Positions 20,101 through 23,580 of a stretch of 31,327 nt of DNA are shown in pieces (within the stretch, counting starts at the first letter, position 1; the number at the start of each line of letters is the position of its first letter). The notes under the pieces are model-generated. The model ran no database searches, was not told the DNA's origin, and was given only the letters and a program-made list of their open reading frames with translations. This DNA comes from Patescibacteria group bacterium (GTDB taxonomy: Bacteria; Patescibacteriota; Minisyncoccia; Phycocordibacterales; CAIRYW01), in NCBI GenBank assembly GCA_030917145.1, contig JAUPVJ010000041.1, forward strand, positions 1 through 31,327, written 5' to 3'. Position numbers and translations under genes: made by a program.

Positions 20101-20327
20101 AAGCGAGTTCGGTTTGCTACATAAAAATCTACACCAAGAATTGGTTTGATTTCAGCTTTTTTACATTCTTTGTAAAACTCGATCGCTCCGTAAAGGTTTC
20201 CAGCGTCAGTTAAAGCCACAGCTTCCATGCCATTGTCTTTGGTTGCTTTGATGATGTCAGGAATCTTAGGAAGCGCCTGTAAAAGGGAGTAGTGGCTGTG
20301 TAAATGAAGATGTGTAAATTTCGACAT
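17160..20327 (-). CDS. dnaE: DNA polymerase III alpha subunit
   Basis: PHP domain, FERFLNPDR..PDIDMD, SVHAAGVVI, KFDFLGLKNL, ALYRPGP, YAFNKAHS, LGLYISGHP, C-terminal OB fold. Confidence 0.98.
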   Translation of the reverse strand: MSKFTHLHLHSHYSLLQALPKIPDIIKATKDNGMEAVALTDAGNLYGAIEFYKECKKAEIKPILGVDFYVANRTRFDREPKIDNKRTRLVLLAKDLVGYKNLIKLVTDSHFEGFYYRPRLDKELIEKYSEGLVAISPSFSGEISLALKNGNEELAHDWAEFYKKVYGEDFYIEITHHEEIDGFPERMEKLVEFAKKENIPLVAAHDVYYIEKDDRKARTTLLSVQKSFTASSNDDEADFSFITQKEASKFFKNIPEALSNCEKIVEKCNLEIPLGKWMFPKIDLAPGKTYDDAFRDIVFAGFERRSVEKTPEVLERAEYELSVIKTKGYSPYFLVVADLLRHAKENFILSNIRGSVSGSLVTYLSGITNINPLEYEIPFERFLNPDRPSAPDIDMDYADNRRDEMVEYARQKYGKEYVAQIGTFGTMAARGSVRDITRALGHDVATGDKIAKMVPMGSQGFPMTLERALEEAAELKELYKKDEVVKNIIDMAKKIEGCARHISVHAAGVVIAPIPLTEVTPLQFDPKGEGKIITQYDMYSIDEENAGLLKFDFLGLKNLSIIADTLRLAEKLKGAKIDIDTIPIDDAKTFAMLARGETEDLFQLNGDGMTRFLVDLKPTTIHDINAMVALYRPGPMQFIPVYIECKHDSSKVKYLDPVLEPILRKTYGVLVYQDDLLMMANKIAGYTWGEVDKFRKAVGKKIPKEMAEQKEKFIKGCVEYSKWPEKKARELWTWIEPFASYAFNKAHSVSYGRVAYITAYLKANFPAEYMSSVLTHESGDVDKVAISVAECKRIGIQVLPPDINESFEGFTIVKDENGKENIRFGLTSVKNFGEGIAAAIIEERKARGKFSSLEDFLKRVQDRNLNKKSLEALVKCGALDLFEDRGKLFHNIDILLEFNRENEKNSAQDSLFGSIVGGDKITLRDSEPLPQNEQLRWEKELLGLYISGHPLDKFREKMQSKGISIAKVLENPKEGQAQMILGVCAEMKEIRTKKGDLMAFVKMADFSTTMEVVLFPEIYENTKKIFDGENCIAIEGKISLRNGGVSLLAEKIRKI

Positions 20328-20359
20328 GGATAGATTTTAACATACCAAAAAGAATTTGT

Positions 20360-20387
20360 TTGACTTTGAGGGATTGAAGTATAAAGT
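20360..20387 (+). promoter_or_regulatory. Promoter of the 83-aa ORF, divergent from dnaE
   Basis: TTGACT(20360-65)-16-TAAAGT(20382-87). Confidence 0.5.
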
Positions 20388-20408
20388 AGTAGCGAACCAC
20401 CATTCTTT

Positions 20409-20660
20409 ATGACAACTTGTTTTCATTTACATGGAACGCCCGACATTCGGACTCCCGAACTTCTTGCGCTTGTACCTCAACCACCAAGTGTAATGAGGAT
20501 TGAGCCGATCACAAACCCTGAGGGTTTTGTGGTGAGAATCCTTGTGACCTTTAAGGGCTCGATGGACGAAGGTCTAAGTGGTACCCTTGAGCGGTCCGGG
20601 TACCACCAGGAAAAACCTCCCGAGCCAGAGGAGGAAGAAATTGAAAAAGACGGAAGCTGA
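20409..20660 (+). CDS. Small hypothetical protein (83 aa, acidic tail)
   Basis: ORF track; own promoter; TGA lies within a terminator stem. Confidence 0.65.
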   Translation: MTTCFHLHGTPDIRTPELLALVPQPPSVMRIEPITNPEGFVVRILVTFKGSMDEGLSGTLERSGYHQEKPPEPEEEEIEKDGS

Positions 20661-20680
20661 GAAATCAGCTTATTTTTTTT
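20654..20680 (+). terminator. Intrinsic terminator
   Basis: aagctga-gaaa-tcagctt followed by a T-run. Confidence 0.8.
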
Positions 20681-20681
20681 G

Positions 20682-20710
20682 TTTACTTTTATTTTAATGT
20701 GTGGTACTAT
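20682..20710 (+). promoter_or_regulatory. Leaderless-type promoter of the 74-aa ORF
   Basis: TTTACT-17-TACTAT with TGn; ATG 8 nt downstream. Confidence 0.6.
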
Positions 20711-20718
20711 ATAAAAGT

Positions 20719-20943
20719 ATGATACTTGTTCCTTGTTTGGATGATGGTGAGCCTGAGTTTTCAAAAGCTGATTTCGAGGCGTTGTGGAACAACGTTCGCG
20801 AATTTTTGAAGAAGGGGTGGAAGCGCCCATCAGTCGAGCCTCTGTATGGGAGCGACGCAAAACCATTTGGATTGCTGATCGAATCCGAAGGGGCAGCGTA
20901 CCATGTGCTCACTGTCTTTAAGGCGCTGAAGCCTGTTTGTTAA
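20719..20943 (+). CDS. Small hypothetical protein (74 aa, MILVPCLDDGE...)
   Basis: ORF track, start revised to ATG 20719 on the basis of promoter position; followed by a terminator. Confidence 0.65.
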   Translation: MILVPCLDDGEPEFSKADFEALWNNVREFLKKGWKRPSVEPLYGSDAKPFGLLIESEGAAYHVLTVFKALKPVC

Positions 20944-20977
20944 ACACTAAGAGTTTTTACTCATTAGTGTATTTTTT
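20944..20977 (+). terminator. Intrinsic terminator
   Basis: acactaa-gagt-tttt-actc-a-ttagtgt followed by a T-run. Confidence 0.75.
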
Positions 20978-21002
20978 TGTCTGTAAAAGTTACGATATAT
21001 AA

Positions 21003-21608
21003 ATGAGTGAAAGCTTTTTGATCGGAATAGACGAAGCAGGGAGAGGGCCACTGGCCGGACCTGTAGCTATCGGGCTTTTTAAAATCAACAAAGGATCTTT
21101 AAAAAAAGGTTTTTTTGAGAAAAATTTTCCTGGGCTTAAAGACAGCAAGAAGCTTACCGAAAAAAAACGAGAAGAGTTTTTTATCAAACTACAATCTTTT
21201 AAAAAAGATGGAATCATTGATTTTTCAGTTTCTTTAATTTCAGAAAAAATCATCGACCAAAAAGGAATTTCTTTTGCTATAAAGCTCGGAATAGAAAAAT
21301 GTTTGAAAAAAGTAAAAGCTCAAAGTAAGGACGAAATTCTTTTAGACGGAGGACTTAAAGTTTCTCCACTTTTTAAGAATCAAAAGACGATCATAAAAGG
21401 AGACGAAAAAGAGCCTACAATCTCACTTGCTTCGATTTGTGCCAAAGTCACTCGCGACAGGTTCATGAAAAAAGAAGCTTTGAAATACCCCGATTTTGGG
21501 TTTGAGGTCCACAAAGGCTATGGTACTAAGAAACACAGGGAATATATTGAAAAGTTAGGACTCACGAAAATCCACAGAAAAAGCTTTTGTAAAAAGGTTA
21601 GGGTTTGA
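21003..21608 (+). CDS. rnhB: Ribonuclease HII
   Basis: [53 protein letters not shown]. Confidence 0.97.
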
Positions 21609-21618
21609 GCCTTCAAAT

Positions 21619-21646
21619 TTGCCAGATTTTTCTCTTTGTGTATACT
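21619..21646 (+). promoter_or_regulatory. Promoter of rpmF(-nusB-rnc)
   Basis: TTGCCA-16-TATACT; ATG 9 nt downstream. Confidence 0.6.
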
Positions 21647-21655
21647 GTAAATATT

Positions 21656-21865
21656 ATGGTAGTAAGAATGCGACACACCCGGTCACATACCGGCAATAGA
21701 AGAAGTCACCACGCTTTAAAGGCTACGGTCTCAAAGCTGTGTGAAAACTGTGGAAACCCAAAACTTCCGCATGTTGCCTGTGGTAACTGTGGGACCTATA
21801 AAAAGCGGGTAGTTGTTGAAGTTGTTACAAAAGCCGAGAAAAAAGCATCTAAAGCAAAAAAATAA
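21656..21865 (+). CDS. rpmF: 50S ribosomal protein L32 (zinc-ribbon form)
   Basis: [36 protein letters not shown]; start revised to ATG 21656. Confidence 0.95.
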
Positions 21866-21873
21866 AAGTATCG

Positions 21874-21908
21874 TCCCGAAAGGGAATTAAAAAATAAGTT
21901 CTTTAATA
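21874..21908 (+). promoter_or_regulatory. boxB-like GAAA hairpin plus boxA overlapping the nusB start codon
   Basis: tccc-gaaa-ggga (21874-85); GTTCTTTAATA (21898-21908) matches the boxA consensus GYTCTTTAANA, and its last A is the A of the ATG. Confidence 0.7.
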
Positions 21909-22810
21909 TGGCCACTAGGCACCTCTCGAGATCAGTAGTTTTACAAACAATATTTGAGTGGGATTTCAAAGATAAACCCGAAGCCTCTTTTGATGTTGAA
22001 CTAAAAAGAAACCTAGACGAATTCGCTCCAGGTTCTACAGACTTTCCTTTTATAAAAAAATTAGCGGACGGAGTACAAAAGAAATATAAAGATTTAGATA
22101 AAATCATTTCAAAAGCTGCTCCTGATTGGCCTCTAGAAAAAATCGCAAATGTCGACCGAAACGTTTTACGTATCGGTCTTTATGAGCTTCTGTTTTCTGA
22201 TCGTGGAGAAGTGCCGCCAAAAGTTGCGATCAACGAAGCTATTGAGCTTGCAAAAACTTTTGGAGGAGAAACTTCCGGGCGTTTTGTAAACGGAGTTCTT
22301 GGTGCGGTGTACAAAGAACTTGGAGAACCAGGAAAAGAACAAGAATCAAAAAGAAAAAAACTTCCAGAGGTTGCTTTTGAAGACATGGAAATTGAACGAT
22401 TGGTTGGAGCTGTAGTTTACGCTCGCGATGCTCAAAATATTTATCTCGCTTTGGTGCATGACATTTTTGGTCACTGGACTCTTTCAAAAGGGCATAACAA
22501 AGAAAACGAATCAGATGAAGATGCTGTGGTCCGAAAAGTAGAAGAAGAGATGGGGGTTAATGTTCTTCCTGAAGACAAGCTCGGATCAAACGAATATGTA
22601 GCAACGCTCCCAGAAAAAGGCAAAGTACGAAAACAAGTAAATTACTTTTTAGCAAAAACAGATTTTAAAGATTTGAAGCTCGGAGAGTCTGGAGGGCTAG
22701 ATGATGCAAAATGGTTTAAGATTACAGAAATTTTAGATCTAAATTTTTATGACGATATCTTGCCGATAGTTACAAAAGCAATTGGAATCTTAGCATCTAA
22801 GAAGAGCTGA
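21908..22810 (+). CDS. nusB: Transcription antitermination factor NusB fused to a C-terminal NUDIX domain
   Basis: RHLSRSVVLQTIFEWD, DRNVLRIGLYEL, VAINEAIELAKTFG..SGRFVNGVLG; then HWTLSKG..G-x5-E-x7-RKVEEEMG. Confidence 0.92.
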   Translation: MATRHLSRSVVLQTIFEWDFKDKPEASFDVELKRNLDEFAPGSTDFPFIKKLADGVQKKYKDLDKIISKAAPDWPLEKIANVDRNVLRIGLYELLFSDRGEVPPKVAINEAIELAKTFGGETSGRFVNGVLGAVYKELGEPGKEQESKRKKLPEVAFEDMEIERLVGAVVYARDAQNIYLALVHDIFGHWTLSKGHNKENESDEDAVVRKVEEEMGVNVLPEDKLGSNEYVATLPEKGKVRKQVNYFLAKTDFKDLKLGESGGLDDAKWFKITEILDLNFYDDILPIVTKAIGILASKKS

Positions 22811-22817
22811 TTTAAAA

Positions 22818-22885
22818 GTATTTAGTATGTCGTATATAGTATTTGGTATTTATACTTAATACTATATACAAAATACTACATACTA
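22818..22885 (+). repeat. Inverted heptamer-periodic array forming a long hairpin in the rnc leader
   Basis: GTAT at 22818/25/32/39/46 and ATAC at 22852/59/66/73/80; 22823-22850 pairs with 22858-22885 (24 of 28 positions). Confidence 0.8.
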
Positions 22886-22893
22886 TTCACACA

Positions 22894-23580
22894 ATGAATA
22901 CAGACATAATCGAAAAAAAAATAGGAATAGTTTTTAAAGACAAATCTCTTTTGGAGAAGGCTTTTACACACCGCTCTTACTTAAATGAAAACAGAGGTCT
23001 TGGTCTTGAACACAATGAACGTCTAGAGTTTTTAGGAGACGCTGTTTTGGAGCTCGTGGTTACAGACTTTTTGTATAGAAAATATCCAAAAAAACCAGAA
23101 GGGGAAATGACTTCTCTGCGGTCAGCTTTGGTAAACTCTACAATGCTTGCGGAAATTTCAAGTTCTCTAAATTTTAGTGAGTACCTACTGCTTTCTCGTG
23201 GTGAAGCAAAAGACAAGGGAAGAGCAAGACAGTACATCTTGGCAAATACTTTTGAATCAGTCGTTGGGGCAATTTACCTTGATCAAGGTTATGCTGGAGC
23301 AGATAAATTTATTGGAGAATTTCTTTTGCCCAAAATCACAGAAGTAGAAGAAAAGCGCCTTTGGATAGATGCAAAAAGTTTTTTCCAAGAACAAGCTCAA
23401 GAAAAATTTGGTTCTACTCCTCAATATAAAACTCTAAAAGATCACGGTCCTGACCATGACAAGGTCTTTACTGTTGGTGTATTTATCGGCGAAGATCTAA
23501 TCGCTGAAGGAAGTGGAAAAAGTAAACAAGATGCAGAACAAGAAGCTGCGAGGAGTGCACTAGACAAAAAAGGATGGTAA
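22894..23580 (+). CDS. rnc: Ribonuclease III
   Basis: AFTHRSY, NERLEFLGDAVL, EGEMT, ANTFESVVGAIYLD, dsRBD (GPDHDKVF, GKSKQDAEQEAA). Start revised to ATG 22894. Confidence 0.97.
   Translation: MNTDIIEKKIGIVFKDKSLLEKAFTHRSYLNENRGLGLEHNERLEFLGDAVLELVVTDFLYRKYPKKPEGEMTSLRSALVNSTMLAEISSSLNFSEYLLLSRGEAKDKGRARQYILANTFESVVGAIYLDQGYAGADKFIGEFLLPKITEVEEKRLWIDAKSFFQEQAQEKFGSTPQYKTLKDHGPDHDKVFTVGVFIGEDLIAEGSGKSKQDAEQEAARSALDKKGW

Follow-up and report, generated by a model that had tools for sequence, protein, structure and literature searches.

A NusB protein fused to an ApnA-hydrolase-type Nudix domain in Patescibacteria: a conserved nucleotide pocket beside a repeatedly altered catalytic box

The rRNA transcription factor NusB is universal in bacteria, and we know of no described accessory domain of Nudix type on it. 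In its canonical form (E. coli, Aquifex aeolicus) it is a stand-alone protein of about 140-170 aa. Among Nudix proteins, the bacterial ApnA hydrolases (Aquifex aq_158, structure 3i7u; Thermus Ndx1, 1vc8; Chlamydia CT771, 4ilq) also stand alone and have R-E in the Nudix box; the first Glu of the REUXEE part of that box, or its equivalent, reportedly matters for catalysis, according to data on MutT E53, RppH E53A and C. elegans E52Q. Mycobacterial MutT1 is a two-domain fusion whose Nudix half is of the same ApnA/8-oxo-GTP type with a canonical box, and whose partner domain is a histidine-phosphatase enzyme rather than a transcription factor. In characterised Nudix enzymes the box glutamates in general are metal ligands or catalytic residues (PMC2425470). 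CFIm25 (NUDT21), a eukaryotic Nudix-fold protein without the second and fourth of these glutamates, binds Ap4A with a Kd of 2.4 uM, its hydrolysis being undetectable (PMC2425470).

The window considered here, that is, the whole stretch of 31,327 nucleotides that was analysed, comes from a Patescibacteria assembly and encodes a protein that compares with each of these systems in part. The relevant features are:

21908..22810, + strand: nusB-nudix fusion gene, ATG start, 300 aa plus stop; sole NusB gene found in the assembly
21926..22315, + strand: NusB domain, aa 7-136 (Pfam PF01029, TIGR01951), predicted all-helical
22322..22393, + strand: charged flexible linker, aa 139-162, with low pLDDT and the lowest conservation of the whole protein
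22403..22747, + strand: NUDIX domain of ApnA-hydrolase type, aa 166-280 by Pfam (about aa 161-297 as a structural domain)
22490..22558, + strand: Nudix box, aa 195-217, with Lys210 at the first-Glu site of REUXEE (from the sequence)
22535..22537, + strand: Lys210 codon AAA (from the sequence)
21003..21608, + strand: rnhB (RNase HII), found ahead of rpmF in this window as well as in three related loci
about 21665..21865, + strand: rpmF (ribosomal protein L32), conserved upstream neighbour of the fusion
22843..23580, + strand: rnc (RNase III), conserved downstream neighbour of the fusion

The open reading frame at 21908-22810 (+) is intact over its 300 codons and passes from NusB through the linker into the NUDIX domain; relative to a canonical NusB, about 160 aa of linker and Nudix are added at the C-terminus. 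A first-pass annotation, made from the DNA letters, had proposed such a fusion at this place, and the frame and the profile matches confirm it. Pfam PF01029 (NusB) matches aa 7-136 above its gathering score (E 1.1e-34), the TIGR01951 nusB equivalog of NCBIfam is passed with 124.2 bits against a cut-off of 88.35, and PF00293 (NUDIX) matches aa 166-280 with 45.8 bits against a gathering score of 21.1 (E 8e-12); the match to the NUDIX_2 family of Pfam is below threshold (E 0.12). The source assembly (574 kb in 85 contigs, 72% complete) contains five further Nudix matches elsewhere and a NusG gene, the fusion gene being its only NusB match, while S10 and a 16S rRNA gene or rRNA operon are absent from this 72%-complete assembly.

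The AlphaFold2 model of the fusion protein, obtained with 114 homologues as input, has two confident domains (mean pLDDT 87.5). Its NusB half is all-alpha, with six helices over aa 4-138 at a pLDDT mostly above 85, and resembles in this the all-helical fold of canonical NusB. Linker residues 141-151 fall below a pLDDT of 50 and are predicted to be disordered. No fixed orientation of NusB and Nudix and no interdomain interface is predicted in this model (pTM 0.57), and co-folding of the two domains as separate chains gave a score of 0.00, which speaks neither for nor against an interface. Among 54 metagenomic cluster representatives of the family, the mean pairwise identity is 42% for NusB, 29% for Nudix and 18% for the linker. 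On the predicted model, a flexible and poorly conserved linker fits tethering better than rigid allostery, and an allosteric sensor model is weakened because the interdomain interface that allostery would need is not predicted.

We determined how far the fusion extends beyond the window. A word-indexed database search with the window protein scored 8000 proteins, the best 120 of which are 288-355 aa long, carry both PF01029 and PF00293 in 119 cases and, where the source is named, come from Paceibacterota/Parcubacteria-type MAGs; more than 8000 database proteins appear to have the two-domain architecture, and an exhaustive search of 50%-identity cluster representatives yielded full-length fusions in about 60 clusters, the most remote of them about 30% identical to the window protein. 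All 8 species-representative genomes of the order to which the window belongs have the fusion, as do no fewer than 18 of the 401 sampled across the phylum, so the lost stop codon confined to a single assembly, which had been named as a possible refutation, does not account for it. One of these 401 genomes (G154, flagged as unpublished) gave a NusB-only match, on which nothing specific depends, and six apparent "read-through" NusB matches in the same survey proved to be ordinary stand-alone NusB followed by rnc. Within the class, 28 of the 81 genomes sampled have this Nudix domain, each of the 28 copies sharing one frame of 280-340 aa with NusB; the next-best Nudix matches in the 81 genomes are unfused paralogues with at most 33% identity and E 1.8e-12 or weaker, and no close stand-alone orthologue of the fused Nudix lineage was found among them. 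In a tree of Nudix domains, the grouping of all fused ones into one clade is not rejected (p-AU 0.79, with tree supports from a quick search). This agrees with, though it does not prove, the view that the fused Nudix domain arose once and was passed down through much of the class. The fusion may therefore be called widespread and, as had been surmised, uncharacterised: no paper describing it was found in the literature searched on NusB with Nudix or in CPR, and the database annotation of these proteins is simply "NusB".

The sole unfused close copies of the Nudix domain that we found lie on a few metagenome contigs. On the two long ones examined (L028, 1998-2919, and L029, 2023-2926), the gene calls divide the fusion into adjoining nusB and Nudix genes; SMC and TrmD are also fragmented on both contigs, and the split genes were rejected as natural forms, being probably sequencing frameshift artefacts.

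By sequence, the best solved relatives of the Nudix half are Chlamydia CT771, Thermus Ndx1 and the Ap4A hydrolases of Aquifex and C. elegans. The predicted model shows the alpha/beta/alpha Nudix fold, with the Aquifex Ap4A hydrolase 3i7u as the nearest solved structure in Foldseek (TM 0.89, rmsd 2.0 A, 28% identity), followed by the Thermus Ap6A hydrolase Ndx1 (TM 0.85) and then by CT771, MutT1 and human NUDT2. Over the three bacterial ApnA hydrolases introduced above, the TM values are 0.85-0.89 and the identities 25-30%; mycobacterial MutT1 is matched at E 1.3e-5 in NCBIfam and at E 1e-8 in Foldseek. The Nudix half is thus closest to the bacterial ApnA hydrolases (Ap4A-hydrolase/MutT1 type), as had been read earlier from its HWTLSKG motif, which lies at aa 189-195; sequence and structure matches agree on this. 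The fold and motifs, being those of ordinary small ApnA hydrolases, would also suit a housekeeping pyrophosphohydrolase of the ApnA/NTP kind whose gene was joined to nusB during genome streamlining, possibly to secure co-expression, with no mechanistic link to antitermination and with Lys210 tolerated or compensated. Gene fusions are common in reduced genomes, and the flexible, poorly conserved linker and the want of a predicted interdomain interface point the same way. We nevertheless regard this explanation as unlikely: this Nudix lineage is fused in 28 of 28 copies, with no close stand-alone orthologue found in the 81 class genomes, and the sole unfused close copies found lie on contigs that carry other broken genes.

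Alignment to the solved Ap4A hydrolases makes K194 the Lys of their W-T-x-P-K-G motif and places K237, K239 and K242 on their Lys-rich loop and Y281 on their C-terminal adenine-stacking aromatic residue, Y230 aligning with the Tyr that follows the box in bacterial ApnA enzymes. The ApnA hydrolases and the fusion have in common W-x-x-[PS]-K-G, the aromatic residue at the C-terminus and, 13 residues beyond the box, a Tyr. In Ap4A hydrolases, the PKG Lys, the post-box Tyr, the Lys loop and the C-terminal aromatic serve in P1-phosphate binding or adenine stacking (PMC4734340, PMC2425470). By alignment the fusion protein possesses the P1-phosphate and adenine-stacking positions of the ApnA subgroup, their roles being taken from the literature. 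Among 40 species-level fusions from reference genomes, W190, K194, W269 and Y281 are each kept in 40/40, and position 230 is Tyr in 33 and Phe in 4 more; among the 54 metagenomic cluster representatives the figures are 96% for K194 and Y281, 93% for W190 and 91% for W269 and Y246.

The most conserved positions are accordingly residues of the nucleotide/phosphate pocket, and they form no separate surface patch. This bears on the idea that the domain is a purely structural protein-protein adaptor in the antitermination complex, without a small-molecule or RNA-end ligand. SuhB in E. coli is an enzyme fold reused as a scaffold, the window organism's assembly has no IMPase/SuhB family gene, and the erosion of the catalytic residues described below, alongside continued purifying selection, would suit such an adaptor. 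Yet IMPase genes occur in 8 of the 28 fusion genomes and in 10 of the 53 others, without anticorrelation with the fusion, so that a replacement of SuhB by the fusion is unsupported; with conservation peaking in the pocket, we consider the adaptor very improbable.

The Nudix box of the window protein reads G195-x5-E201-x7-R209-K210-V211-E212-E213-E214-M215-G216-V217. It departs from the complete box GX5EX7REUXEEXGU in having R209-K210 for R-E, the remaining box positions being present, and the AAA codon at 22535-37 places Lys at the first Glu of REUXEE exactly as the first-pass annotation had claimed. Examination of this position across the family revealed that (i) among the 40 species-level fusions, residue 210 is E in 25, K in 7, A in 4, G in 2, R in 1 and S in 1, the full canonical box occurs in 22/40 (some 55-60%), and E214 and G216 are present in 40/40, (ii) among the 54 metagenomic cluster representatives, Glu210 is found in 12, E201 in 65%, R209 in 57%, E213 in 56% and E214 in 74%, these box figures being sample-dependent and the 40 species-level fusions the less skewed set, (iii) 40 of the 42 relatives that are at least 70% identical to the window protein have Lys210, and of the 121 closest proteins at least 96% retain E201, R209, E213 (or Asp), E214 and G216, and (iv) the residue at 210 varies by clade among K, V, I, A, G, S and E. 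As read from these alignments, Lys210 is a clade trait, fixed in the window's own clade, and not a hallmark of the family; the survey of the E-to-K change that had been called for thus upholds it for the clade and not, given the canonical majority, as a family signature.

A maximum-likelihood tree, with its root placed at the most distant fusions, has canonical deep branches (EREEE); sister pairs differ in their box, and at least 10 changes between E and non-E are required at position 210. The ancestral box was probably canonical, and the family would have begun as a probably active ApnA-type hydrolase tethered to NusB. In two species of one genus (L009 and L011), the fusions are 74-78% identical and the box is E-R-E-E-E in one and D-K-A-K-E in the other, which, judged by alignment, is a very recent and nearly complete loss of the catalytic set with the remaining domain intact. 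For this EREEE/DKAKE pair, dN/dS is about 0.11 in both domains with dS near saturation; pairs in which both members are without Glu210 show 72-73% identity in Nudix against 74-76% in NusB, so the eroded domains are not in general decay; dS being saturated in every pair, all selection estimates are rough. As a control, the RE..EE residues are kept in 16/16 unfused Nudix proteins of the same class; an unfused paralogue occurs in just 12 of the 81 genomes, too patchily for an orthologue-level control, and these proteins serve as a pooled control of box conservation. Repeated catalytic loss in a conserved domain, when unfused Nudix proteins of the class keep these residues without exception, is not what the housekeeping hydrolase discussed above would lead one to expect.

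The comparison with CFIm25 is instructive here. Both proteins place a Nudix fold in a factor linked to RNA processing or transcription, and both lack the same (second) box Glu. CFIm25 differs in that the fourth Glu is also absent, in being a dimer with extra N- and C-terminal elements and in belonging to the NUDIX_2 family of Pfam, and it has no close homology to the fusion. Set against the CFIm25/NrtR type, one of the four Glu is lost here and several in some relatives, and the pocket is invariant. We favour a binding role because the pocket is held, because the first Glu is repeatedly lost and because CFIm25 provides a precedent. Specifically, we give about an even chance to the reading that the Nudix half of the window protein is a module that binds through its pocket, is tethered to the Nus complex and turns its ligand over weakly or not at all. 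A functional NusB would carry, on a flexible tether some 20 residues long, a Nudix domain of ApnA-hydrolase type, and selection would now act mainly on the adenine/polyphosphate pocket and not on fast hydrolysis, given the many independent losses of the first catalytic Glu; Lys is fixed in this lineage, and the metal/phosphate ligands E201, R209, E213 and E214 are kept.

The earlier claim that the domain binds rather than hydrolyses its nucleotide therefore stands in part: the relaxed catalytic constraint and the strict conservation of the pocket fit it for this lineage, whereas three of the four box Glu are intact. With these, Arg209 and Gly216 in place, residual or even substantial hydrolysis is possible, the more than half of species-level relatives that have a canonical box are probably active enzymes, and the core function of the family may still be catalytic, with Lys210 as a tolerated variant.

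Under the binding reading, the Nudix domain, turning its ligand over slowly if at all, would most likely hold a nucleoside-5'-polyphosphate at the antitermination complex of NusB, NusE and boxA. Candidates for this ligand are free dinucleotides of the ApnA type and, on the nascent leader RNA, a 5' end that bears 5'-ppp or an Np(n)N cap; the effect would be the read-out of a nucleotide signal or the holding or marking of an RNA 5' end. What binding does to antitermination we can only infer. In a broader and rather doubtful version, the tethered Nudix domain, which in many lineages, this one among them, would have turned from an enzyme into a pseudoenzyme receptor, reads nucleoside-5'-polyphosphate ends at the Nus complex, either by gripping RNA or through ApnA gating. 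In the former case, the leader end held by its 5'-ppp or Np(n)N group would form a second anchor beside the boxA clamp and bring leader and spacer together for RNase III; in the latter, occupancy by an ApnA alarmone would control NusB function. A large radiation of ultra-small bacteria has fused NusB to a domain of the nucleotide-polyphosphate-binding type and kept the fusion, and in our view the domain is drifting from enzyme to binder. Were it to read ApnA levels or RNA 5' ends, it would couple ribosome biogenesis physically and directly to nucleotide or cap signalling, and the range from canonical through Lys or Val to fully decayed boxes would, if the reading is true, offer a natural series for the study of how pseudoenzymes originate.

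The canonical box in the presumed ancestor and in the majority of fusions also suits a somewhat unlikely alternative, namely an active RNA 5'-end enzyme, RppH-like or decapping, which NusB delivers to boxA-containing nascent leaders and which converts 5'-ppp or Np(n)N caps to 5'-p, licensing 5'-end-dependent pre-rRNA processing beside RNase III. The tether to an RNA-binding factor and the conserved rpmF-nusB-rnc neighbourhood would suit such an enzyme. RppH E53A, the equivalent of a change at the first Glu, is a standard inactive mutant, and this Glu has changed at least 10 times independently in the fusions with the domain meanwhile under purifying selection, which argues against the enzyme, as does a minimal domain of about 135 aa without an RNA-binding extension. 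The match to the RppH equivalog NF001936 of NCBIfam cuts both ways: it exists (E 5e-4), but at 20 bits it remains far below the cut-off of 118. NUDT2 trims PPP-RNA, so an Ap4A-hydrolase-type Nudix can act on RNA 5' ends (PMC8616924).

The rRNA leaders of relatives lend this enzyme some further support. In the 16S leaders of three fusion-bearing relatives with assembled rRNA operons, a boxA-like motif CCTTGAAAATT is conserved in the form (G/A)(T/A)(T/A)CCTTGAAAATT, 100-165 nt upstream of 16S, at about -112 (L072), -98 (L073) and -163 (L074) from the start of that gene. Promoter-like TTGAC(A/G)-17-TATA(A/C)T hexamers, read by eye, precede the motif by roughly 120-165 nt. The motif differs from the E. 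coli boxA consensus and resembles the boxA of Gram-positive bacteria and Aquifex. Near nusB in the window this leader-type motif is absent, and it is not enriched. A boxA-like GTTCTTTAA at 21898-21906 adjoins the nusB start codon. It is one of 21 genome matches to the pattern GYTCTTTAA, of which the reversed form, taken as a control, gives 31, so its frequency is at chance level, and similar motifs upstream of nusB are seen in few relatives and are absent in the closest ones. As judged from these sequences, the leader motif is a plausible boxA of the group and a better candidate than GTTCTTTAA for the real NusB target.

The first-pass annotation had joined a boxA, rpmF and rnc with the fusion into a ribosome-biogenesis control module. 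The boxA drops out of it on the counts just given. The gene order is real and conserved, but the rnhB-rpmF-nusB-rnc-smc arrangement is not specific to the fusion because it is also found around stand-alone NusB in Patescibacteria: six such loci from the phylum sample, one of them in the same class, all have the nusB-rnc core, most have rpmF upstream and some have rnhB or smc.

Two further observations concern the flanks of the gene. The RNase III reading frame is listed from a TTG at 22843, and an ATG near 22896 (MNTDIIEKK...) matches the rnc starts of relatives better and is probably the true start; the AT-rich spacer 22811-22895 (GC about 0.26) is an untranslated leader if rnc starts there. 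Upstream, Rfam gave no match at gathering score in the window and chance-level ones only in 20300-21950. The 675-bp gap between dnaE and rnhB (window 20380-20990) has a GC content of 0.45-0.49 against about 0.37, and it holds ORFs of 83 and 80 aa without a Pfam match and has no Rfam match itself. It folds well below shuffled sequences on both strands (z -4.1 and -5.0), and on the + strand it shows two units, each closed by a hairpin and a T-run after it, near 20665-20695 and 20950-20985; the gap could hold two small genes or structured RNAs.
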